Assembly: GCA_038065455.1 (NCBI GenBank)
Contig: JBBTQX010000004.1
Coordinates: 5,157-69,156 of the forward strand
DNA: 64,000 bases
DNA from: Patescibacteria group bacterium
GTDB lineage: Bacteria; Patescibacteriota; Minisyncoccia; UBA6257; GWB1-50-10
Direction of reading: 5' to 3'
This document shows positions 2,220 through 63,572 of the stretch, piece after piece. Each line of letters starts with the position of its first letter. Position 1 is the first letter of the stretch. A program made the position numbers and the translations under genes. Under the pieces are notes generated by a model that saw nothing but the letters and a program-made list of their open reading frames with translations, did not search any database and had not been told where the DNA came from.

Positions 2220-3233
2220 TTACATATCGAGCACCGGGCGGCGCTCTTTCCTTTCGGTCAGATAATTGAAGATTTCTTGGACTAAGACAGCAAGCGGAAC
2301 ACTTAAGATTATCCCCACAAAACCGGCGATTTGGGCCCCAGCCAAAAGGGAAACAACCACGATTACCGGGTGTACTCTCATACTCTTACCCATTATGATC
2401 GGAATGAGTATATGATTCTCAAATTGCTGGACAACAAAAAAGAATGCTAAAGCATACATACCCAACGCCGTGGAATCGGCGATAGCGATAACGAAGGCAA
2501 TAAGCCCAATCATTATAGGACCGATGATCGGCACCACCTCGAATATGGCGGCGAGAATACCCAAAATCAGAGCGTAGCGAACGCCAATAAACCACATTCC
2601 CAATCCCACCGCGAAACCGACGAATAGACTCAATACCAGCTGAGTGCCGAGCCAGCGGCGCATTTTTATCTTGAATCCGTCGAAAATGGATAGAATCGGC
2701 CGTTCGTAATCATCCGGGATGATAACCCGTATCATTTTTTCCGCTCCGTCTTTTTCAATACTCAAATAAAGTGTGACAAAAATCGAGGAGAAGAAAAGAA
2801 TGGCGTTTCCGAAGAGTTTAGTAATCGCGCCGGGAACGGAATTGCCCGCGCCCGAAATCAAATTCAATATCTGATCCGCTCCGATATTCAAACTTTCCAA
2901 ACTCAAGCTGAAATTGCCGAAACGAAAAACCGAAGTAACGAATTGAGTAAAATGGAAAAGGAAGCCGGCCAGTTCCTCGAAGATAACCGGCGCTATGATG
3001 TATATTCCGCCGGCAAAAACGGAAATAATGGCGAGAATCACGATGATGGAGGCGAAGACCCGACCGATTCTGGCTTTCTCGGCGAGAAAAGTGACGAATG
3101 GGTCTATTCCCATCGAAATCACAACACCCACAAGAAGAACGGTGAAAGCATCCCAGGCGAAATAAACGAGCGCGATGCCCGCCAGAAAGATAAAAATCCT
3201 CCATAAAGTCCCCCAAGCCACTTCCGTTTTCAT
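2220..3233 (-). CDS. AI-2E family transporter (PerM/YhhT-like)
   Basis: This is a polytopic membrane protein with an AI-2E-like core (RRWLGTQLVLSLF..VPIIGPIMIGLIAFVIA). The start is probably the ATG at 3231-3233 (MKTEVAWG), which overlaps the inverted repeat of the element at 3231-3361. Confidence 0.55.
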   Translation of the reverse strand: MKTEVAWGTLWRIFIFLAGIALVYFAWDAFTVLLVGVVISMGIDPFVTFLAEKARIGRVFASIIVILAIISVFAGGIYIIAPVIFEELAGFLFHFTQFVTSVFRFGNFSLSLESLNIGADQILNLISGAGNSVPGAITKLFGNAILFFSSIFVTLYLSIEKDGAEKMIRVIIPDDYERPILSIFDGFKIKMRRWLGTQLVLSLFVGFAVGLGMWFIGVRYALILGILAAIFEVVPIIGPIMIGLIAFVIAIADSTALGMYALAFFFVVQQFENHILIPIIMGKSMRVHPVIVVVSLLAGAQIAGFVGIILSVPLAVLVQEIFNYLTERKERRPVLDM

Positions 3234-3361
3234 CCCGTTAGAAACAGGATACGCCGCTTTGGCGCATCCGTTGGGAATCAAGCGACCTCCGAGATTTGAT
3301 TTTTCTCATAATTACCTTCATTTTTATATCTTTAGAATACACCGGTTTCTAACGGGATTCA
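3231..3361. mobile_element. small element bounded by inverted repeats (copy a)
   Basis: The ends are CATCCCGTTAGAAAC ... GTTTCTAACGGGAT, a 14-bp inverted repeat. Inside, next to the left arm, is the hairpin GGATACGCC..GGCGCATCC, and the rest is AT-rich. The flanking pentamers TTCAT/TTCAT form a possible direct repeat. Confidence 0.6.
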
Positions 3362-4627: not shown

Positions 4628-6026
4628 ATATGTAATTTTTTAGTTCTTTGATTTTTACGCGTTCCTGTTTCATCGTATCGCGGTCCCGCACCGTCACGTC
4701 TTCAGTTTCCAGGCTTTCGAAATCCACCGTGATGCAGTAAGGCGTGCCGGCTTCGTCCTGCGCCCGATAGCGCTTGCCCACATTTCCCCTGTCGTCCCAC
4801 GCCACCGTGTACTCTTTCCTCAATTCTTCGTAGATTGTCCGTGCCAGTTTTACCAGCTCCAGCTTATTAGCCAGAAGCGGAAAAACCGCGGCTTTGTAGG
4901 GCGCTAATTTGGGATGTAATTTCAATACAATCCGTTTTTCCATTTCGTTGTTTTCTTTATTTGAATTTTGGGGCTTGTTTAGGATTTCGGATTTCGGATT
5001 TAGGATTTCTTCCGTATACGCATCCATTAGAAAGAAAAGGGTTGCGCGGTCTACGCCGCCCGAGGTCTCGATGATATAAGGCAGAAAGCGTTCCTTGGAT
5101 TCCTCGTCGAAATAGGTCAGATCCTGCTTGGAAAATTCCTGATGGCGCCGCACATCCCAATCGCCCCGATGGTGGATTCCCTCCATCTCCTTCCAGTCGC
5201 CTTCCGCGTTATACTCGATATCGAATGCCGCCTGGGCGTAGTGCGCCAACTGCTCGTGTTCCTTGAAACGGAGATTTTTCTTCGTCATTCCGAGGGACAG
5301 ATACCACTTCATCCGTTCTTCTTTCCAATATTCCATCCACTTCATCGATTCTTTTTTGTCCGGTTTCGTATAGAACTGCAATTCCATCTGCTCGAATTCA
5401 CGGGAGCGGAAAGTGAGTCCGCCGGGCGTTATCTCGTTCCGGAAGGCCTTGCCGACCTGGACGACGCCGAACGGGATTTTAACGCGGGTGGAATCCAGAA
5501 CATTTTTGAAATTCACGTGCACGCCCTGGGTGATTTCGCCGCGGAGATATGTCTTGAGCTTCTCTCCCTCTATTGAGCCGAGATAGGTCTCGACCATCAG
5601 ATTGAATTGCTTCGGTTCGGTTATTTCTCCGCCGCAATCGGGACATCCGCCAGCCGGCGGATTTTTCTCCAATTGGTCGGCGCGAAAACGATGGTGGCAT
5701 TTTTTGCACTCGACGAGCGGGTCGGAAAAAGAATCCAGATGGCCCGATGCCTCCCAAACCTTCGGATTCATTATTATGGCGGCATCCAGGCCCACGATAT
5801 TCTCGTGCTCCTGCGTCATGTTCTTCCAAAACTCGTTCTTGATATTCCGCTTCAATTCCGCCCCGAGCGGGCCGTAATCCCAAGTACCCGCGAGGCCGCC
5901 GTAGATTTCGGAGCCCGGATAAATAAAGCCGCGCCGCTTGGCCAGAGAAGTAATCTTCTCGAAAATATCCTTCTTTTCTTCCTTCTTCATATATGAACCT
6001 ATTGTAAACCGTAAACAACTCTTCAC
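4605..6026 (-). CDS. glyQS: glycyl-tRNA synthetase, class II (GlyQS type)
   Basis: YGGLAGTWDYGPLG and class II aaRS motifs are present. The protein contains an in-frame heptamer-repeat insertion that encodes EILNPKSEILNKP. Confidence 0.9.
   Translation of the reverse strand: MKSCLRFTIGSYMKKEEKKDIFEKITSLAKRRGFIYPGSEIYGGLAGTWDYGPLGAELKRNIKNEFWKNMTQEHENIVGLDAAIIMNPKVWEASGHLDSFSDPLVECKKCHHRFRADQLEKNPPAGGCPDCGGEITEPKQFNLMVETYLGSIEGEKLKTYLRGEITQGVHVNFKNVLDSTRVKIPFGVVQVGKAFRNEITPGGLTFRSREFEQMELQFYTKPDKKESMKWMEYWKEERMKWYLSLGMTKKNLRFKEHEQLAHYAQAAFDIEYNAEGDWKEMEGIHHRGDWDVRRHQEFSKQDLTYFDEESKERFLPYIIETSGGVDRATLFFLMDAYTEEILNPKSEILNKPQNSNKENNEMEKRIVLKLHPKLAPYKAAVFPLLANKLELVKLARTIYEELRKEYTVAWDDRGNVGKRYRAQDEAGTPYCITVDFESLETEDVTVRDRDTMKQERVKIKELKNYIYEKYQKN
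4974..5009. repeat. tandem heptanucleotide repeat (GGATTTC/GGATTTA, 4 units) inside the glyQS coding sequence
   Basis: The + strand reads aggatttcggatttcggatttaggattt. On the coding strand this is GAAATCC units. Confidence 0.85.
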
Positions 6027-6041
6027 TCAAGTTATCAAAAA

Positions 6042-7850
6042 CTATTTAACCACATCGGATTCCCCTGAGATTGCTCCTACTACTGCGCTCGTGACGGAGC
6101 CCGCAACGCTTTGCAAATCGAGTCCGGTAAAATTGTCCAAGGCCTTGAGGCGGGCCGCTCTCAGGAGAAGCTGAGAAGCACCCAACATATCGTCATTCGG
6201 CGTTCCTTCGATTTGAAAGACCGCCTCGGCCGGCTCGCTCAAAACCCCCTTGGTCGCCGCCACTCGGTCGATTCTCCAAACCACCTCGTTCTCCTTCTCG
6301 TCGAAGACGGGCGATTCGCCCAAATTGGCCTTGACCGCGCCACTCCATTTCACCCCGGCGGCGAGCGCCGCCCTTACCTCGACATTATTCAAATCATTGG
6401 AAAAATTCTTTATCACCCAATGGACGGAGTATTGGGTGGATTCGCCCACTTTGGGCGGCAGATTGCCCGCATCCGTTATTCCGCTTTCTTTGTTATTATG
6501 GAAAGTTTGGGCGGTTAGGAGCACCAAGCCGGAAATCTTCGTATCCGACGCCACGCTCACCGACGTCTGGCCGGCCGAAAGATAGTAAGGCACCGAAGGC
6601 GAAGTCACAATCGCGTTCATCCGAACGGAAAAATTGCGGTCGTTCAGCCTCGTAAGATTGAACGAGCTTCTTATCTTCGCCTGGAAATTCACCTCGCCGT
6701 TCGCGCCCGGATCAAGCATCTTCAAAGCCGGCAAATTCGAGAAATTCCAATAAAAAGATTTGGCCGCCGCCGGATCGAGCATTTCTCCGGTCAAAGACGC
6801 GTTCAATTTCACGTCGGCTAAAACAATGCCGCTGTCATTCCGATAACGGATGGAATAATTGAGGGTTTCGCCGACTTTCGCGGTGTAATCTTCCCGACCG
6901 TTCACCGAAACTTCCAGAAAAATCGGCGAAGCGGAAGGCGAGAGATTTACCGTTCCTTCCGCGATTGGATATTCGTTCCCACCCAGTTCGGCCGAAATTT
7001 TAACGGGAATGACGGCAGTCGCCCCATAGGTCAAATCAAGCCGACCAGAAATAACAAGTTTACCCTTCGCCCCGGGAGCCAAAACGCCCAACTTCCAATA
7101 ATTATTGAGCGAAGCCGGCGGAACGCTCGCCGAATCGAATTTGAACGAGTTGGGATACTCCGCCTGCAAGATTAATTCCGAAAAGCTGAAATCGCTCTCA
7201 TTTTTGTAATTCACTTCCAGCTGAAAGCCCGAACCGCTCAATATTTGGCCGGGATTTTTTATTTCCATCGATACGGCCGAGCCTTTTATTTTCACTTCTC
7301 CGGCCGATCGAACTTCGAAACGGGTGCCTGTCCCGATCGAGTAGGATACCGAGGCCGATATTTTCCCGACCGAATTGTCTTCGCCTGTTGCCAAGAGGGA
7401 AAAAGTTTTTTTAACCAGGTTTCCCGAAGCGATGTCACCCGCGCTTTCCGTCGCCAAATTACGGCCTGCGGGAAAACCAGGCACGGCGATGCCCTCGGGA
7501 AGATTGAGGGTAATCACGGCTTTATTAATAACCCCGCCTGAATTATTCGCCATACTAACTTCAACGGAAAAAGGGGTACCCCGTGAAACGCTCTTGGGAA
7601 CGGATACCTCTAGTGTCACATCCCGGGAAACGGAAGTATAGGAAAAGATGAAAAATAAGCCGGCGCCGACTATGAGGAGTGCAATAATACTGCCGATAAG
7701 AAGTATTTTTTTGAGCCACCTGTGATGATCTTCGATATCATCCTCAAATTCGCGGATTTTTTCGGCGAAAGGCTCGATCCCGGCTTTTTTTGCGGTGGGA
7801 AACTTTTTTTGGAAAGTTTTGAGCCTTTTCTCGAGGTTATTCAGGGCCAT
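6042..7850 (-). CDS. membrane-anchored surface protein with repeated beta-sandwich domains (DUF11/CARDB-like)
   Basis: The N-terminus has a TM segment (ILLIGSIIALLIVGAGLFFIF). It is followed by Thr/Ser/Asn-rich repeated modules of about 100 aa. Confidence 0.4.
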   Translation of the reverse strand: MALNNLEKRLKTFQKKFPTAKKAGIEPFAEKIREFEDDIEDHHRWLKKILLIGSIIALLIVGAGLFFIFSYTSVSRDVTLEVSVPKSVSRGTPFSVEVSMANNSGGVINKAVITLNLPEGIAVPGFPAGRNLATESAGDIASGNLVKKTFSLLATGEDNSVGKISASVSYSIGTGTRFEVRSAGEVKIKGSAVSMEIKNPGQILSGSGFQLEVNYKNESDFSFSELILQAEYPNSFKFDSASVPPASLNNYWKLGVLAPGAKGKLVISGRLDLTYGATAVIPVKISAELGGNEYPIAEGTVNLSPSASPIFLEVSVNGREDYTAKVGETLNYSIRYRNDSGIVLADVKLNASLTGEMLDPAAAKSFYWNFSNLPALKMLDPGANGEVNFQAKIRSSFNLTRLNDRNFSVRMNAIVTSPSVPYYLSAGQTSVSVASDTKISGLVLLTAQTFHNNKESGITDAGNLPPKVGESTQYSVHWVIKNFSNDLNNVEVRAALAAGVKWSGAVKANLGESPVFDEKENEVVWRIDRVAATKGVLSEPAEAVFQIEGTPNDDMLGASQLLLRAARLKALDNFTGLDLQSVAGSVTSAVVGAISGESDVVK

Positions 7851-10330: not shown

Positions 10331-11437
10331 ATGAAGATACTCGCAATCGAAACGTCCTGCGATGAAACCGCGCTCGCGCTTCTCAAAGCAAGCGGGGGCT
10401 TGCGCGCTCCGAAATTTAAAGTCATTAAGAATCTGGTCTCTTCCCAGATAGAAGTGCATCGGCCCTGGGGTGGCGTCGTGCCGAACCTCGCCAAACGAGA
10501 ACACATTAAAAATTTGCCGATTGTGTTTGAGCAAATTTTTTCAAATCCTAAATACCGATTTCATCGAGTATCCTCGACAAAGTCGGGACAAATTCAAAAT
10601 TCTAAAATCCAAATTCCAAAAATTGATCTGCTGGCCGTAACAGTGGGACCGGGACTGGAGCCGGCACTTTGGACCGGCGTCGAATTCGCAAAAGAATTGA
10701 AAAAAAATATTTTTCCGAAAGTTCCGCTAATCGGCGCAAACCATTTGGAGGGACACCTATACAGTTTTTTGCTATCGCAAAAAACTGCAAATCCTAAATC
10801 CAAAATCCTAAATCCTAAAATATTTCCCGCAATTGCGCTTATAGCAAGCGGGGGTCATACCATTCTTCTCAAGATGGAATCACTCATAAAATGGAAAAAA
10901 TTGGGTGAAACGCGGGATGACGCGGTGGGCGAGGCTTTCGATAAAGCGGCAAGAATACTCGGCCTTCCCTACCCTGGCGGACCGGAAATTCAGAAGCTCG
11001 CAGCTAACGGCAATCCCGAAGCCGTCGCCTTCCCTCGTCCGATGATTTACGACAATTCGCCGACTGGCAAATATGAATTCAGTTTCTCTGGTTTGAAAAC
11101 TTCCGTCCTTTATTATCTGCGGGATAATCCGAAAGCCGACAAAGCGAATGTAGCCGCCTCATTCCAGAAAGCTGCGGTGGACGTTCTGATATCGAAAACC
11201 GCCCGCGCCGTTCGGGAATTTAAGGCGAAATCGGTAATGCTTTCGGGCGGCGTCGCGGCCAACGCGTATCTTAGAGACAGACTGCGAGAGGCAAGCGACA
11301 AGATGGGTGTAAATTTCCTGGTGCCGCCGATGGATTTCAATACCGATAACGCCGTGATGATCGCGGCCGCGGCCTATATCCAAAATCTGCGCAAAAAGAA
11401 ATACGCCATTCGCGCCCAAGGGAATTTGAATTTATAA
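10331..11437 (+). CDS. tsaD: tRNA N6-adenosine threonylcarbamoyltransferase TsaD (Kae1/Gcp family)
   Basis: MKILAIETSCDETALAL, LIASGGHT and GVAANAYLR are all present. Two low-complexity heptamer-repeat insertions are also present. Confidence 0.9.
   Translation: MKILAIETSCDETALALLKASGGLRAPKFKVIKNLVSSQIEVHRPWGGVVPNLAKREHIKNLPIVFEQIFSNPKYRFHRVSSTKSGQIQNSKIQIPKIDLLAVTVGPGLEPALWTGVEFAKELKKNIFPKVPLIGANHLEGHLYSFLLSQKTANPKSKILNPKIFPAIALIASGGHTILLKMESLIKWKKLGETRDDAVGEAFDKAARILGLPYPGGPEIQKLAANGNPEAVAFPRPMIYDNSPTGKYEFSFSGLKTSVLYYLRDNPKADKANVAASFQKAAVDVLISKTARAVREFKAKSVMLSGGVAANAYLRDRLREASDKMGVNFLVPPMDFNTDNAVMIAAAAYIQNLRKKKYAIRAQGNLNL
10589..10623. repeat. degenerate heptamer repeat (AAATTCA/AAAATCC ...) in tsaD
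   Basis: The sequence is aaattcaaaattctaaaatccaaattccaaaaatt. It encodes QIQNSKIQIPK. Confidence 0.7.
10789..10816. repeat. heptamer repeat AAATCCT/AAATCCA, 4 units, in tsaD
   Basis: The sequence is aaatcctaaatccaaaatcctaaatcct. It encodes ANPKSKILNPK. Confidence 0.85.
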
Positions 11438-11444
11438 TTGGAAT

Positions 11445-13709
11445 ATGAACGCTGATTTTTCAAAGCCCTATGACCCGAAGATAACCGAAGAAAAAATATA
11501 CCAGCTTTGGCTTGATTCCGGCTATTTCAATCCGGACAACCTGCCTGCGCAGGCAGGCCTGCCTGTCGCAAAAATCAAAAATTCAAAAATTAAAAATTAC
11601 GTGGTATATATGCCCCTCCCGAACGTGACGGGCACGCTCCATATGGGCCACGCCTTGAACAACACCATTCAGGATATTCTCATCCGTTATCATCGGATGA
11701 AGGGATATAAAACGCTCTGGCTCCCCGGCACAGACCACGCCGGCATCGCCACGCAGTACGTGGTGGAAAAAGACCTGCGAAAACAAAATATTTCCCGTTT
11801 CGAACTCGGCCGGGAAAAATTCGTGGAGAAGGTCTGGGAATGGAAGAAAAAATATGGCGACGCGATCTTAAACCAGCTCAAAAAAATTGGCATCTCGGCC
11901 GATTGGTCCCGCACGCGCTTCACGATGGACGAAGCCTATAGCCAAGATGTTTTAAAAGTCTTCGTTCATTACTACGAGAAGGGCTGGCTTTATCGCGGAC
12001 TCCGCACCGTGAACTGGTGCCCGAAGGATGGCACAAGCCTCTCCGAGCTGGAACTGGAATACGAGGATACCGAAACCAAACTCTGGTATATCAACTATCC
12101 GCTTACGGATAGTAAATCCGAAATCCGAAATCCGAAATCCGAATTCATAACAGTGGCGACAACGAGACCCGAAACGATGCTGGGCGATACCGCGATTGCC
12201 GTGAATCCCGCCGACAAGAGATACAAGCATCTTATCGGAAAGACCGTCGTCCTTCCGATTCAAAATCGAGAGATACCGATTGTGGGCGATATCGCGATAG
12301 ACCCTAAGTTCGGCACGGGCGCGGTCAAGGTGACGCCGGCCCACGATATTCTCGATTTCGAAATCGGCCAACGGCACAAACTGGAAACGATTCAGGTAAT
12401 AGACGAACGGGCCAAAATGACGGTGATAGCCGGAAAGTATGCCGGACTAAAAGCCGTTGAAGCCCGCGAAAAAATCGTGAACGACCTCAAAGAAATGGGG
12501 CTTCTGGTAAAAGAAGAAAAATATCAAACCCGCGTCGCGAAGTGCTACCGTTGCGGCACGATTATTGAGCCTATCCCATCCAATCAATGGTTTTTGAAGA
12601 TGGATAAATTGGGAGCGATGGCGAAGCAGGCCGTGAAATCCAAAAAAGTGAGAATTCAGCCGAAAAATTTCGAGAAAACCTACTTGAATTGGCTTGAAAA
12701 CGTCCGCGACTGGTCGGTCTCCCGCCAAATTTGGTGGGGACACCGGTTGCCGGTTTGGTTTCACGAGCCGAAGTGCGTTCCCAAAAAGGGCCGCGAAAAG
12801 GATTCCGCCAAGTGCGAGGAGATGGTGGTTTCGCTCACCGAACCGGAGTGTAAATATTGCGAAGGGAAATATATCCAATCGGAAGACGTGCTTGATACCT
12901 GGTTTTCCTCCGCTCTTTGGCCATTTGCCGGGCTTTCTAAAGAAGATGCAGAAAAATATTATCCCGGAAACGTCCTCGTAACCGCCCGCGACATCATTAA
13001 TTTATGGGTCGCGCGGATGATCTTCTCCGGCTTAGAATTCAAGAAAAAGGTTCCCTTCACTGATGTCTTCATTAACGGCACCATCCTTGCCAAGGACGGC
13101 CGGCGAATGTCCAAAAGCCTCGGCACTGGCATTGACCCGCTGAATTACATCGGACTGCATGGAGCGGACGCGACACGTTTCGCTATCATCTGGCAGGCCT
13201 CCGGCCAGGATATCCGCTGGGACGAGGCGGCCGTCATGGCCGGCCGGAAATTCTGCAATAAAATCTGGAACGCATCCCGCTTTGTTATAGAACAAAGCGG
13301 AAATCCGAAATCCGAAATCCGAAATCCGAAACCTCGAACGGCAGCGGATAAAAAGATTCTTAAGAAGCTCGCGGCGGTGAAAAAACAAACCGGAAAAAAC
13401 ATAGAAAAATTCGAGTTCTCGAAAGCGCTCCACGATATTTACGATTTCTTCTGGCATGAGTTCTGCGACATTTACATCGAGGAGACAAAAAAAATTCACC
13501 CCGTTAGAAATAGCCCGCCCCAAGGCCCGGAGGGCGCGCGCCGCGCGGGCGAGATTTCTAACGGGGCAGGAGGAAATTCGGCAGAAATATTGATGTATGT
13601 ATTAAAAGAATCCCTTAAAATGCTCCATCCATTCATGCCATTCATCACGGAAGCGATCTATGGAAACATGGCCGAAAAAAATGGGCTTTTAATGGTTGAA
13701 AAATGGTAG
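11445..13709 (+). CDS. valS: valyl-tRNA synthetase (C-terminally short)
   Basis: PNVTGTLHMGHAL is the HIGH region, DGRRMSKSLG is the KMSKS motif, and LHPFMPFITE is present. The protein is 754 aa. It contains two GAAATCC repeat insertions and a 69-bp element inserted in frame. Confidence 0.9.
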   Translation: MNADFSKPYDPKITEEKIYQLWLDSGYFNPDNLPAQAGLPVAKIKNSKIKNYVVYMPLPNVTGTLHMGHALNNTIQDILIRYHRMKGYKTLWLPGTDHAGIATQYVVEKDLRKQNISRFELGREKFVEKVWEWKKKYGDAILNQLKKIGISADWSRTRFTMDEAYSQDVLKVFVHYYEKGWLYRGLRTVNWCPKDGTSLSELELEYEDTETKLWYINYPLTDSKSEIRNPKSEFITVATTRPETMLGDTAIAVNPADKRYKHLIGKTVVLPIQNREIPIVGDIAIDPKFGTGAVKVTPAHDILDFEIGQRHKLETIQVIDERAKMTVIAGKYAGLKAVEAREKIVNDLKEMGLLVKEEKYQTRVAKCYRCGTIIEPIPSNQWFLKMDKLGAMAKQAVKSKKVRIQPKNFEKTYLNWLENVRDWSVSRQIWWGHRLPVWFHEPKCVPKKGREKDSAKCEEMVVSLTEPECKYCEGKYIQSEDVLDTWFSSALWPFAGLSKEDAEKYYPGNVLVTARDIINLWVARMIFSGLEFKKKVPFTDVFINGTILAKDGRRMSKSLGTGIDPLNYIGLHGADATRFAIIWQASGQDIRWDEAAVMAGRKFCNKIWNASRFVIEQSGNPKSEIRNPKPRTAADKKILKKLAAVKKQTGKNIEKFEFSKALHDIYDFFWHEFCDIYIEETKKIHPVRNSPPQGPEGARRAGEISNGAGGNSAEILMYVLKESLKMLHPFMPFITEAIYGNMAEKNGLLMVEKW
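11541..11603. repeat. GC palindrome plus AAAAATN heptamer run in the valS N-terminal region
   Basis: The GC palindrome is cctgcctgcgcaggcaggcctgcctg. It is followed by aaaaatcaaaaattcaaaaattaaaaatt, which encodes AKIKNSKIKN. Confidence 0.6.
12114..12141. repeat. tandem heptamer AAATCCG x4 in valS
   Basis: The sequence is aaatccgaaatccgaaatccgaaatccg. It encodes KSEIRNPKSE. Confidence 0.9.
13301..13328. repeat. tandem heptamer AAATCCG x4 in valS
   Basis: The sequence is aaatccgaaatccgaaatccgaaatccg. It encodes NPKSEIRNPK. Confidence 0.9.
13498..13566. mobile_element. small element bounded by inverted repeats (copy d), inserted in frame in valS
   Basis: The ends are CCCCGTTAGAAAT ... ATTTCTAACGGGG, a 13-bp inverted repeat. 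The core is GC-rich. At 69 bp it adds 23 codons (PVRNSPPQGPEGARRAGEISNGA). Confidence 0.6.
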
Positions 13710-30950: not shown

Positions 30951-30953
30951 TTG

Positions 30954-31025
30954 TGGGCGATGAGGGATTTGAACCCCCGGCCTTCATCGTGTAAAGATGT
31001 TGCTCTACCACTGAGCTAATCGCCC
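30954..31025 (-). tRNA. tRNA-Val (anticodon UAC)
   Basis: The cloverleaf reads GGGCGAT-TA-GCTCAGTGGTAGAGC-A-ACATC-TTTACAC-GATGA-AGGCC-GGGGG-TTCAAAT-CCCTC-ATCGCCC-A. CCA is not encoded. Confidence 0.85.
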
Positions 31026-31032
31026 TGGATTG

Positions 31033-31106
31033 TCGGCCCGGAAGGACTCGAACCTTCGAATAGACGAGGTATAAGCTCGTTGCATTAGCCGCTATGCTAC
31101 GGGCCG
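31033..31106 (-). tRNA. tRNA with anticodon UAU, putative tRNA-Ile2(UAU) reading AUA
   Basis: The cloverleaf has acceptor CGGCCCG/CGGGCCG, D-arm GCAT-AGCGGCTA-ATGC, anticodon arm ACGAG-CTTATAC-CTCGT, a 6-nt variable loop, T-arm GAAGG-TTCGAGT-CCTTC and discriminator A. It directly abuts the ftsH stop codon. Confidence 0.65.
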
Positions 31107-32951
31107 TTAGGCCTTCAATCCTACTTGCTTCAGATTAAAGCTTTTTATGATTTTGTAAAACTCTTCCTGTTCCAAGGTCTCTTTTTCCATGAGCGCCTTA
31201 GCGATGGTATCCAGAACGGTGCGGTGGGCCGTCACGATTTTTTTGGCGATGTTTAAGGTCTTCTCGATTATCTTATTCACCTCGGCATCTATTTCAGTAC
31301 CGACGGTTTCGGAATAATCTTTTTCAGTCGTCATCTCGCGGCCCAAAAAAATCAGTTCTTGGGTCTTGCCAAAGGTGCGCGGCCCGAGTTTTTCACTCAT
31401 GCCATATCTGGTCACCATCCGATGGGCATCGTCCGTCGCATTCTTGATATCACTCGAGGAGCCGGTCGTAATGTCTTTGAAAACCAATTGCTCCGCCACA
31501 TATCCGCCGAAGGATACGGCGAGGTCGGCCAAAAACTGCGTCTTGGTGCGGAGATGGGTTTCTTCAAGCGGCAATTTTATCGTATAACCGCCGGCCATTC
31601 CTCGGCTGATAATGGAAACCTTGTGTATCGGGTCGGCATCTTTCAAAGCCGCCGCGACAAGCGCGTGGCCGGCCTCGTGATAGGCGGTGATTTTCTTTTC
31701 GTTGTCGGAGATGACGCGGCTTCGGCGCGCGGGTCCGAGCATCACTTTCTCGATGGAACTCAAAAAATCTTCCTGGTCGACAATTTTCTTATTCTCCCGG
31801 GCGGCTTTGATGGCCGCTTCGTTTATGAGATTCGCCAAGTCCGCTCCGGCGAAGCCCGGCGTGCGCACCGCCACCACTTTCAAATCGACATTTTTCGCGA
31901 GCGGCTTTCCGATGGCGTGGATTTTCAAAATCTCTTCCCGGTCTTTGATGTCGGGACTGTCCAGAACCACGCGCCGATCGAATCGGCCGGGTCTCAAAAG
32001 CGCGGCGTCCAAAACATCCGGGCGATTTGTTGCCGCCATCACGATAACATTGGAGTTCCGTTCAAAGCCATCCATTTCAACGAGAATTTGATTCAAGGTC
32101 TGTTCGCGCTCGTCATGGCCGCCGCCCATCCCGGTGCCGCGCTCGCGTCCCACCGCATCAATCTCATCTATGAAAATAATGGAAGGCGCGGCTTTCTTGG
32201 CTGTCATAAACAAATCCCGCACGCGGCTTGCACCCACGCCCACGAACATTTCGACGAATTCCGAAGCGGAGATATGAAAAAAAGGAACATTGCTCTCGCC
32301 CGCCACCGCCCGGGCCAAAAGGGTTTTGCCCGTGCCCGGCAGACCCATCAGAAGCACGCCGCGGGGAATACGCGCGCCGATATCCAGAAATTTCTTGGAA
32401 TTTTTCAAAAAATCCACTACTTCGCGCAATTCTTCTTTGGCTTCTTTCAATCCCGCCACATCCTTGAAGGTCACCTTGTCCTTACTTCGGGAAAAGAGCT
32501 TGATGTTCATTTTGCCGAATGAAAAGGCCTGATTCGCTCCGGTCTTCGCTTGGCGGAATATCCACCAAAAAATCAAAACCATAACGATTATGGGCAGGAT
32601 AATCGGAACAAGAATACCCATCCAATATTTGAAACCACTCTCGTCTTGGACGCTCAGTTGCAGTTTTATCAAAGCTTCTTTCGTTACGCCGTAACCGGTG
32701 AGCGTTTCGATTATTCCCGTCTCGTTCTCCTTGCGCGAATGGGCGTTCGTCCCATCGTTCAATTTTATTTCCAAATCATTGCCATTCACATTCACGCTCT
32801 TCACCTCGCCTGCGATTATTTTTTGGGCCAGAGCGTCAATTGTGAGCTTCTGCGAATCCGTACCGGCCGGCGCCGAAAAAAGCGAAAAGATAAAAGCGAC
32901 GAAAAATAAAAGGATTATGGCGCCCGTGAAATTTTTGGTAAACTTTTTCAT
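31107..32951 (-). CDS. ftsH: ATP-dependent zinc metalloprotease FtsH
   Basis: The Walker A motif is GLPGTGKT. The second region of homology is present. HEAGHAL is the zinc-binding site. The N-terminus has TM segments. The ATG overlaps the inverted repeat of element copy b. Confidence 0.95.
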
Positions 32952-33064
32952 CCCGTTAGAAACAGGATGCGCTTTTTAAGCGTATCCGTATTATTAAACT
33001 TATTTATTTCTTTATTTTTCATGGAATATTCTATATTATACTTAGCAAATTTCTAACGGGATGA
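32949..33064. mobile_element. small element bounded by inverted repeats (copy b)
   Basis: The ends are CATCCCGTTAGAAAC ... ATTTCTAACGGGATG. The internal hairpin is GGATGCGC..GCGTATCC and the core is AT-rich. The left repeat arm contains the ftsH start codon. Confidence 0.6.
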
Positions 33065-34253: not shown

Positions 34254-34331
34254 CAATCCCGTTAGAAATCACGCCCGCGCGCAAGCGCGCCCCGCAGGGG
34301 CCTGCGGGGCGGGCTATTTCTAACGGGATCA
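34254..34331. mobile_element. small element bounded by inverted repeats (copy c), with a GC-rich hairpin core
   Basis: The ends are ATCCCGTTAGAAAT ... ATTTCTAACGGGAT, a 14-bp perfect inverted repeat. The core is GCCCGCCCCGCAGG-GGCC-CCTGCGGGGCGGGC. The flanks are ATCAAT and ATCAAC. Confidence 0.6.
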
Positions 34332-60994: not shown

Positions 60995-61843
60995 ATGATT
61001 AATCCTTTAAAAATAACCCAGGGGCAATTCGACCGGCGATGGGATGAAATGCCAGAAAGTCTTCGTGAACTTCTTTATTCTCCGGAACACGCCGAAATAA
61101 TCAGACTCATCTGCGAAAATCACCACCTGAGTGAAGAAAAAATAGAGACGGTTCTTGGTGTTGTTGGGAGTATTATTGCTGGATTTATTCATATTCAAGA
61201 TCTGGATCATCAAATTGTGGTTGTTCTTGATTTAAATCCCGAGTTGGCGAAAACGCTAGCTCTCGAAATCAATGAGCGGGTATTGGTTCGTTTCGAAAAA
61301 GAAATTGAGGATGTTTTTCAGCCGGTTTTGACGACTGGGGGAGCAAAAAAGAAAGAGAAAGAGAATAATAATTTAACGAACGTTAAGATTGTGGACGAAG
61401 ATGTACCTGGGCCCGTTTCTTTGTCGGAAAAGCCTTTTATTCTTCATCAAGAAAAATCCGAGGCTCCGGAAGAGAAGAAATCGTCTTTCAAAGGATTTTC
61501 GATGCCGTTCGGATTTTTCAAATCTAAAAATCAGCCAACTCCCGCCGGAAAATCGACAAAGGTGGAAATAGAAACTTCCGGCGACTCTCCGAAAAACGAA
61601 AAAAGAACGGTGAACTACAATGAGCTCCGTACCTCGCTCTCGCCCTTTGAAGTTGAACAAAATTTCATCAATCCCGTTAAAAATGAACCGGTTTCCGCGC
61701 TAATCGTTCCGATTCCGGAAATAAAACCCGTTCCGGCGGCGCCGGAAATATCCCCGCTCTCGGAAGAAAAGAAAAGCGAGATATTCGGCACCATCAAAAA
61801 GCCCCAGCCGAAAACGGAGGGAAATACCATCGATCTGCGATAA
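60995..61843 (+). CDS. hypothetical protein (282 aa)
   Basis: No recognisable motif was found. The C-terminus is Pro/Glu/Lys-rich. Confidence 0.4.
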   Translation: MINPLKITQGQFDRRWDEMPESLRELLYSPEHAEIIRLICENHHLSEEKIETVLGVVGSIIAGFIHIQDLDHQIVVVLDLNPELAKTLALEINERVLVRFEKEIEDVFQPVLTTGGAKKKEKENNNLTNVKIVDEDVPGPVSLSEKPFILHQEKSEAPEEKKSSFKGFSMPFGFFKSKNQPTPAGKSTKVEIETSGDSPKNEKRTVNYNELRTSLSPFEVEQNFINPVKNEPVSALIVPIPEIKPVPAAPEISPLSEEKKSEIFGTIKKPQPKTEGNTIDLR

Positions 61844-63440: not shown

Positions 63441-63572
63441 ATGAATCCCGTTAGAGACATAAGCCTTATGAAAAATATGATTACCAAACAATCAATGAAA
63501 TCCAATAAAGTCGAGTTAACTAATCCATCACGGATGCGCTTTTTGAGCGCATCCTGTCTCTAACGGGATGAA
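63441..63572. mobile_element. small element bounded by inverted repeats (copy e), lying between the two halves of the VirB4-like gene
   Basis: The ends are ATCCCGTTAGAGAC ... GTCTCTAACGGGAT. The hairpin GGATGCGC-tttttga-GCGCATCC sits next to the right arm. ATGAAT is directly repeated on both flanks. The right flank supplies the ATG of the downstream ORF. Confidence 0.6.

Follow-up and report, generated by a model that had tools for sequence, protein, structure and literature searches.

An in-frame palindromic repeat in the valyl-tRNA synthetase gene of a Patescibacteria bacterium, read as a probable copy of a hairpin-type transposable element

A stretch of 64,000 nucleotides from a Patescibacteria group bacterium (assembly GCA_038065455.1, contig JBBTQX010000004.1, positions 5,157 to 69,156; hereafter the window) was analysed with regard to a palindromic DNA segment lying within valS, the gene for valyl-tRNA synthetase (ValRS). 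This segment, 68 bp at 13499..13566, is read here as a copy of a non-autonomous, hairpin-type transposable element, similar in structure to the MITEs, transposable elements that are miniature and bear inverted repeats, and in its working to the Rickettsia palindromic elements (RPEs), which would be tolerated by its host gene and near-neutral; we put the probability of this reading at roughly 0.8. It is close to certain that a repeated palindromic element has one of its copies here, in frame with the gene. The family to which it belongs very probably transposes with duplication of 4 bp, and the copy in valS is probably, if less firmly, translated and tolerated rather than removed.

The host gene (valS, 11445..13709, plus strand) encodes a protein of 754 aa and was identified by its open reading frame (ORF), by Pfam and by a match to a solved structure. 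The palindrome closes with a terminal C:G pair and consists of two 13-nt arms, CCCCGTTAGAAAT (13499..13511, as read on the plus strand) and ATTTCTAACGGGG (13554..13566), both within the ValRS ORF and exact reverse complements of one another (13/13), which enclose a GC-rich core of 42 nt (13512..13553). The core holds a second stem, GCCCGC/GCGGGC, and two small hairpins, predicted by RNA folding as GCCC-GGA-GGGC and GCGC-GCC-GCGC; the predicted fold of 13490-13575 has a free energy of -40.6 kcal/mol (z = -2.45). A preliminary description had placed an element of 69 bp at 13498-13566; the unit bounded by the repeats is 68 bp, and base 13498 is an A outside the palindrome. The same description gave 23 codons without a stop, reading PVRNSPPQGPEGARRAGEISNGA. 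The peptide and the lack of a stop were upheld, while the coordinates were not, as these codons occupy 13500-13568 and 68 is not a multiple of three. The in-frame residence of the element in valS is borne out by a perfect 13-nt inverted repeat inside the ORF and by stop-free read-through. The palindrome itself accounts for 22 codons (13500..13565, plus strand; ValRS residues 686-707), with the translation PVRNSPPQGPEGARRAGEISNG; between the codons CAC and GCA the frame runs CCC GTT AGA AAT ... ATT TCT AAC GGG, and the tryptic peptides predicted from it include NSPPQGPEGAR and AGEISNGAGGNSAEILMYVLK. The valS copy spans 66 nt when measured from the outermost base of one 11-nt arm motif to that of the other; with every stem present and 88% identity to the reconstructed sequence of a GC-rich sub-family, it is a canonical and intact member of that sub-family. 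Its core is near-identical to that of a copy in a GatB gene (L046), where the insert pvrnsppsgpsgargageisng is much the same peptide as the ValRS insert.

As had been proposed, the insert stands ahead of the conserved segment LHPFMPFITE, about 20 aa before it. When aligned with ValRS of T. thermophilus, the insert site falls on the loop ALKAGNAH (residues about 655-663), between two helices of the anticodon-binding bundle, which agrees with the suggestion that it would map to a loop. An AlphaFold2 model built from 21 sequences places segment 687-709, with a predicted local distance difference test (pLDDT) score <50, between helices 658-684 and 709-727. In an alignment of 20 ValRS sequences the insert was present only in P0001 and P0002, which are 96-97% identical to the window ValRS; an orthologue with 77% identity (P0003) reads KKQEGIGDIL at this site, and 17 further orthologues have a loop of 6-13 aa there. 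A motif scan of the top 120 ValRS homologues likewise found the insert only in P0001 and P0002, the other 117 and the 77% orthologue being without it, and it was absent from the DNA of L001 (which encodes P0003), L242 (P0004) and L243 (P0007). The earlier expectation that orthologues would lack the segment thus held for the 18 aligned orthologues and for 117 of the top 120 homologues, and the insert is lineage-specific. An identical 68 bp, with the same flanks, occurs in two independent assemblies (L002 and L003), whose valS differs from that of the window by 80 substitutions and a 39-nt indel elsewhere in the gene. An exhaustive HMMER search with a 30-aa segment of the window protein gave only 2 matches at E<=1e-3, the query being too short to score higher, and a word-indexed protein search with a synthetic 48-aa peptide query (the method needs at least 40 aa) gave no match.

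The family is defined by the ends Y-CCCGTTAGAAA...TTTCTAACGGG-R. A scan of a genome collection with the pattern CCCGTTAGAAA-N30-60-TTTCTAACGGG returned at least 120 loci. Among the 80 genome loci listed by taxon, about 34 belong to Patescibacteria of many classes and about 31 to Planctomycetota (Pirellulales, Phycisphaerae, Sedimentisphaerales and one anammox genome), the remaining hosts including Desulfobacterota, Nitrospirae, Omnitrophota, KSB1 and WOR-3. Metagenomes, scanned for the left arm followed by the 7 nt that open the valS core (CCCGTTAGAAATAGCCCGC), gave at least 118 loci; in these the right arm, though not part of the query, was nearly always intact. Viral contigs gave only 3 matches to the element; one of these is accompanied by what looks by eye like a Mu-type transposase/ATPase pair, which seems unrelated. 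Rfam, run over the whole window at gathering score, reported tRNAs only and no family for the element, and around two copies at E up to 10 its matches were at chance level; Pfam had no match in a sub-family peptide copy (L124) scanned with its flanks. The literature searched yielded nothing relevant on the arm sequence, or on MITEs or RPEs in the Candidate Phyla Radiation (CPR) or Planctomycetes. Taken as a family, the element seems new, widespread across phyla and unusually well defined, while the single event in valS seems to be an instance of a known phenomenon.

Members range from 27 to 125 bp. The stem is of 13 bp, Y-CCCGTTAGAAA(T) with its complement, whereas the interior varies from 3 to >100 nt; interiors are not conserved over the whole genome set, and sub-families exist. 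In the GC-rich sub-family the consensus runs from an outer Y through CCCGTTAGAAAT AGCCCGCCC..GCCC-loop-GGGC GCGC-loop-GCGC GGGCGyG ATTTCTAACGGG to an outer R, and in its fold the 13-bp stem is joined by another stem and by a pair of small hairpins, for which compensatory variants (GGTCC/GGACC, GTGCGC/GCGCAC and GCAC/GTGC) were read by eye in the family alignment. The stem was analysed in 251 unique copies of which only CCGTTAG/CTAACGG had been required. It is exactly 13 bp long and covaries at four positions (outer Y:R, CG160/TA72; AT230/GC14; AT223/GC19; TA172/CG25/GC17/AT7), and immediately beyond it base pairing falls to or below the shuffled level. Hairpins of about 27 nt, consisting of the arms and a loop of 3-5 nt, were seen at L232 (approximately 6133-6159), L077 and L116. 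One of these hairpins lies inside the loop of a larger copy and carries its own TAAG/TAAG duplication, and the arms alone therefore seem sufficient for insertion.

The preliminary description had called the palindrome a mobile element, and at the level of the family this is supported: flanks are duplicated, copies lie within one another and empty sites could be reconstructed. In 250 unique copies a perfect 4-nt direct repeat was found outside the Y:R pair, in exact register, in 149, and 32 more had a 3/4 match, whereas shifted registers gave only 0-9 perfect repeats. Collapsed over strands, the duplications were TGAA (51), TCAA (35), TAAA (22), TCCA (9) and CTCA (8), and the oriented pre-insertion logo reads R followed by T-V-A-A (hereafter R/TVAA, the stroke standing before the duplicated bases), with a purine at -1 in 140 of 148. 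TTAA, TATA, TCGA and TGCA were used 0 times as targets, although 22% of TNNA sites are of these four kinds. For this pattern an avoidance of central dinucleotides that are palindromic, as by a serine recombinase, was considered and set aside, as the TVAA target preference explains it more simply. The orientation of the interior is random with respect to the target (29 forward, 28 reverse). Copies nested inside other copies, with duplications of their own, were found at L134, L150, L155, L163, L165, L211 and L232, and tandem copies with one common repeat at L151. When a nested copy and one repeat were removed in silico, what remained could be aligned straight over the junction to dozens of intact host elements, at 92-97% identity (for example L134 against L221, 96% over 77 nt, and L232 against L198, 93% over 71 nt). 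These alignments of filled with empty sites are evidence that insertion duplicates 4 bp. When the ORFs of about 240 loci were clustered all against all, the families in common were housekeeping ones only, with no transposase-like family, which marks the element as non-autonomous, and no long arm pair enclosing a transposase-like ORF was seen among these loci. Long-range arm pairs with matching flanks were considered as possible larger units and rejected, being separate copies at gene starts; the pair in L137, for example, encloses his genes.

The behaviour of the family within genes bears on whether the valS copy is translated. Among the genome matches listed, about 30 of 126 copies lie within long open frames, and so do 28 of the 84 copies in the metagenome set of the GC-rich sub-family. 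Twenty-seven of these 28 read PVRN...ISNG and one PLE...FLTG (27:1); a few of the 28 sit at start codons, as shown by duplicated M-x residues. A census of context was made for the 223 copies whose flanks extended for at least 300 nt both left and right. Intragenic copies, with at least 80 open codons on each side, numbered 24, all stop-free and of a length divisible by three; 62 abut a start codon whose ORF runs to 80 codons or more, 8 are ambiguous and 129 lie in other contexts. Where at least 100 open codons were present on both sides, 26 of 38 copies read straight through, and the other 12 appear to be operon (gene-gene) junctions, with an ATG directly after the element in at least 4 and the rest ambiguous; no clearly broken gene was seen among these 38. 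Pfam recognised domains before as well as after the insert in UvrB, UvrC, ArgRS, alanine racemase, RecG, MetE, an aminotransferase and GatB, and in the proteins of two further contigs, judged by eye to be UvrB-like, the element occupies another two positions. Hosts recognised by eye comprise GlyRS, LigA, PrmC, FolD, ProB, Xth and others. The statement that such an insertion is unusual for an essential synthetase must accordingly be taken as relative, since the family commonly resides in frame in housekeeping genes, GlyRS, ArgRS and GatB among them, and the general phenomenon has a precedent in Rickettsia (PMC10969869).

A canonical insertion amounts to 72 nt (66 nt, 2 for the Y:R pair and 4 duplicated bases), and because this total is in phase and the CCC GTT AGA AAT frame holds no stop codon, it would be read through in frame. 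One of the three frames of the element has TAG/TAA in its arms. Part of the 27:1 bias arises because the TGA in TGAA and the TAA in TAAA exclude one frame; the remainder points to selection acting on the peptide and so to its translation. Where genes meet, the element lies on ATGA overlaps of stop and start, and its terminal purine together with the TGAA repeat rebuilds ATG or GTG (L137). The two copies in question (L137, 3519-3640 and 7140-7260) are of about 125 nt, belong to another sub-family and lie on ATGA overlaps between histidine-biosynthesis genes; the TGAA duplication preserves the upstream stop, and a terminal A or G followed by TGAA gives the ATG or GTG start. Their interiors also hold an in-frame ATG, which would add an MTKK...LPTSNG extension.

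On the reading that we prefer, the family inserts at R/TVAA with duplication of 4 bp, landing also inside other copies, and the enzyme that moves it would act in trans. A canonical member would have entered valS within the stretch coding for a variable loop at the surface of the ValRS anticodon-binding bundle, in the ancestor of a narrow group of strains, where it would be translated as a Pro/Gly/Ser-rich loop of 22-24 aa (PVRN...ISNG) and tolerated by the synthetase. It would then be kept as selfish or near-neutral DNA, since harmless, rather than as a regulatory or catalytic addition. Several observations count against this account. The valS copy is flanked by TTCA on the left (13495..13498), which is the commonest target duplication of the family (TGAA/TTCA), and by CAGG on the right (13567..13570), which does not repeat it. 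Because the flanking duplication is absent, either the valS insertion was not simply canonical or its right flank has been remodelled; both later remodelling and a non-canonical arrival would fit, and this missing duplication is the main gap between the mechanism of the family and the individual copy. The pre-insertion valS could not be recovered from orthologues of 72-77% identity, among which the loop is very variable. The surroundings (about 4-7 kb) of about 240 copies yielded no transposase, so that the term transposon refers to footprints, and the covariation of the arms could stem from different master copies instead of selection for pairing. Frame statistics are the ground on which translation of the insert is proposed, and the structural model is poor overall (mean pLDDT 61.8) and served only for its local helix-loop-helix context. 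A canonical 72-nt insertion followed by small compensating indels was also considered for valS; it fits the P0003 DNA but is unparsimonious, and was not adopted.

Other explanations of the segment were weighed against the same data. The hairpin could be a functional cis-acting RNA in the valS mRNA, such as a pause, a stability element, an RNase III site or a domesticated regulator, and be retained for that role. Its fold is very stable (-40.6 kcal/mol), its stem and inner hairpins are conserved with compensatory changes, and it is 100% conserved in three strains whose valS differs at 80 sites. Such conservation of structure is, however, equally expected if the hairpin is needed for mobility, and the element is found in either orientation with respect to its target (for the core, 29 forward and 28 reverse), in genes of dozens of unrelated kinds and at intergenic sites, with no copy in other ValRS genes among the top 120 homologues and no Rfam match. 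We consider a role of this kind unlikely. It is more doubtful still that the insert has been exapted, so that a loop beside the anticodon-binding helices now serves ValRS function, for example in binding tRNA or a partner. The insert has been kept without substitution across strains, and it sits in the anticodon-binding domain of a ValRS that ends at the equivalent of T. thermophilus residue ~703, without the C-terminal coiled-coil. Yet orthologues that also lack the C-terminal domain manage without the loop, the segment is predicted to be disordered, and near-identical peptides in GatB, UvrB and others indicate a sequence set by the element and not by ValRS.

Translational bypassing is known from phage T4 gene 60 and from the yeast mitochondrial 'byp' GC-clusters, and the valS element could similarly be skipped by the ribosome, its flanking repeats acting as take-off and landing sites, or be removed as an RNA intervening sequence. 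A hairpin between short direct repeats does resemble the architecture of a bypass, and the arms hold TAG and TAA in one frame. Skipping is nevertheless disfavoured because a skipped segment would escape constraint on length and frame, whereas intragenic copies are enriched for lengths divisible by three and stop-free frames (24/24, 26/38) and for one frame (27:1). The valS copy, moreover, is without matching flanks, Rfam gave no group I or II intron match, and 22 residues are too few for an intein; this alternative is about as improbable as exaptation. An assembly or sequencing artefact, either a chimeric join or an error induced by the palindrome, had been named in the preliminary description as something that would overturn its claim. 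Assembly errors can arise at palindromes, and the source is metagenomic, but an artefact can be practically discounted because an identical 68 bp and its flanks recur in two separate assemblies (L002 and L003) from separate replicates, and the family is present in hundreds of contigs from many projects.

RPEs (RPE-1 to RPE-10; Ogata et al. 2000) are elements of about 100-150 bp reported in Rickettsia, and are the classic example of palindromic repeats that lie in frame within essential genes (reviewed in PMC10969869). The present family resembles them as a set of short dispersed palindromes, many of them in frame in unrelated and often essential genes and read as a tolerated peptide, with PVRN...ISNG read through in ValRS, GatB, GlyRS, ArgRS, UvrB/C, RecG, LigA, MetE and others. 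It differs in its size of 27-125 bp (66-68 canonical), its sharp 13-bp covarying stem, its clear 4-bp duplication at R/TVAA and its hosts, which are Patescibacteria, Planctomycetota, Desulfobacterota and others and not Rickettsiales. By analogy the element would work like an RPE, but it counts as a different family, set apart by these features and with no evident sequence relationship. MITEs such as Correia/CREE, ERIC and Nezha (PMC10969869) share with it small size, lack of coding capacity, terminal inverted repeats, target duplication, multiple copies, nesting and occasional in-frame fusion. The valS copy is in keeping with this, having 68 bp without a transposase gene, arms perfect over 13/13 nt and many dispersed relatives, and target duplication is seen in the family (149/250 perfect) but is absent at the valS copy itself (TTCA against CAGG). 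In contrast to typical MITEs, no autonomous insertion sequence (IS) with the same ends was found within about 240 loci, units go down to a 27-nt hairpin (L232), the same arms occur across phyla with differing interiors, and the proportion of copies within coding sequence, or placed exactly at a start codon, is unusually high.

The DDE transposons of the piggyBac and IS1380 groups make a 4-bp (IS1380: 4-5 bp) T..A-type duplication and have short ends beginning CC(C), the piggyBac terminal inverted repeat being CCCTAGAAAGATA, of 13 bp. The element likewise combines a 4-bp duplication with ends beginning CC, and the piggyBac repeat CCCTAGAAAGATA has TAGAAA in common with the element arm CCCGTTAGAAAT. 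This resemblance is a lead only; TTAA, for one, is used 0/149 times here, and no piggyBac- or IS1380-like transposase was seen near the copies, where no search aimed at these families was made. Transposition of the IS200/IS605 type is not known to make a target duplication. REP/REPIN elements, moved by RAYT (IS200/IS605-like) transposases, are extragenic and have a GTAG or CGTC head (PMC3733652). They too are short, abundant hairpin palindromes with conserved pairing, but were rejected as a classification, the arms here starting YCCCG without a GTAG/CGTC head, with a 4-bp duplication and with intragenic copies common. An attC site was rejected on its core order, RYYYAAC...GTTRRRY on either strand as against GTTAGAA...TTCTAAC in the element, and a group I/II intron or other known structured RNA for want of any Rfam covariance match beyond tRNAs. 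The yeast mitochondrial 'GC clusters' or 'byps' are GC-rich hairpins in coding sequence that are bypassed or lie in tolerant regions of organelle genes; the likeness is that of GC-rich hairpins invading protein-coding sequence, and the difference is that the frame statistics here indicate read-through. Inteins need the splicing blocks of a Hint domain and at least ~130 aa, and this identity was rejected for an insert of 22 aa, Pfam having found nothing in the L124 copy peptide.

Taken jointly, these features may describe a previously undescribed superfamily of minimal hairpin transposable elements that crosses phyla and colonises coding sequence, although we rate this wider proposal at somewhat less than even odds. 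Its members would have a 13-bp covarying stem, insertion at R/TVAA with 4-bp duplication, units down to ~27 nt and interiors from GC-rich three-way junctions to AT-rich segments. They would inhabit Patescibacteria, Planctomycetota and other uncultivated lineages, adding a PVRN...ISNG loop to housekeeping enzymes and, at gene junctions, rebuilding ATG or GTG starts from the terminal purine and the TGAA duplication. Their mobilisation would be in trans, possibly by a piggyBac/IS1380-like enzyme, and hence capable of precise excision; if this is true, the elements would be a general and reversible source of protein loop insertions in very small genomes. In-frame selfish palindromes in essential genes have been treated as a peculiarity of Rickettsia, and the same behaviour is now seen in another, sharply defined element, abundant in groundwater and sediment bacteria of several phyla that include the genome-reduced Patescibacteria, presumed to be under tight gene economy. 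Many unexplained insertions of 20-25 aa in proteins from metagenome-assembled genomes could be such elements, and the PVRN...ISNG signature lets annotators recognise and mask them. The element also marks naturally permissive loop positions in ValRS, GlyRS, ArgRS, GatB and UvrB, and it raises the question of which enzyme moves a 27-nt hairpin with a 4-bp duplication across phyla.

Over the whole window the arm motif (up to 2 mismatches) has 9 matches against 2.7 expected, a number reached in 0 of 100 shuffles. These include four pairs, that of valS among them, and a fifth pair has the compensated variant GAGA/TCTC, giving five copies in 64 kb. The second copy (3233..3357, 125 bp) lies between two minus-strand genes, has an AT-rich interior with one inner hairpin and is flanked by TTCA on both sides (3229-3232 and 3358-3361). 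The third (32951..33061, 111 bp) abuts with its left arm the ATG of a minus-strand gene (31107..32951); its flanks, TTCA on the left and TGAA on the right, are inverted and not direct repeats, which may be a trace of recombination between two copies. The fourth (34257..34328, 72 bp) is intergenic, belongs to the GC-rich sub-family with its core oriented opposite to that of the valS copy, and has TCAA on either side. The fifth (63446..63568, 123 bp), with the compensated arms CCCGTTAGAGA and TCTCTAACGGG, is flanked by TGAA on both sides, and its terminal A with the following TG makes the ATG, at 63568, of a plus-strand ORF. Perfect direct repeats (TTCA, TCAA, TGAA) are thus present at three of the five copies. 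A lone, slightly degenerate arm, TCCCGTTAAAAAT, at 61672-61684 has no recognisable partner and may be a decayed copy or a chance match.

The valS product has the features of a class Ia ValRS, namely the catalytic core, HIGH/KMSKS motifs, a CP1 editing domain and a helical anticodon-binding domain. Pfam matched PF00133 (tRNA-synt_1, E 8e-123), PF13603 (a fragment of the editing domain) and PF08264 (Anticodon_1), HMGH and RMSKS are readable in the translation, and the closest solved structure is T. thermophilus ValRS (1gax, E 7e-179, residues 5-752 aligned). In the alignment the protein stops at the equivalent of residue ~703 of the T. thermophilus enzyme, which has 862 aa; the coiled-coil region that binds tRNA at the C-terminus is missing, and Patescibacteria orthologues (694-766 aa) are likewise without it.

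A second kind of in-frame insertion, distinct from the palindrome, is formed by arrays of a heptamer (GAAATCC and variants; ~4.5 copies per array of ~31 nt), which lie in frame within coding sequence and translate to SEIRNPK- or KIQNSK-type peptides. They were found in tsaD (10589-10620 and 10789-10819), in valS (11569-11598, 12114-12143 and 13300-13331) and on the minus strand at 4978-5009. The valS array at 12114 belongs to the 39-nt indel that separates the window from L002 and L003, strains of 96% identity, and other ValRS orthologues have different low-complexity inserts at this spot. Substitutions between the window and L002/L003 cluster strongly around this indel (12089-12167) and in 12599-12875, the genes being nearly identical outside these clusters, and this distribution suggests recombination patches within valS. 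As a further observation, ARAGORN identified a tRNA-Ile with anticodon TAT beside a tRNA-Val(TAC), at 31032-31106 and 30953-31025 respectively, both on the minus strand; a UAU tRNA-Ile is uncommon in bacteria, in which the lysidine-modified CAU form is usual.

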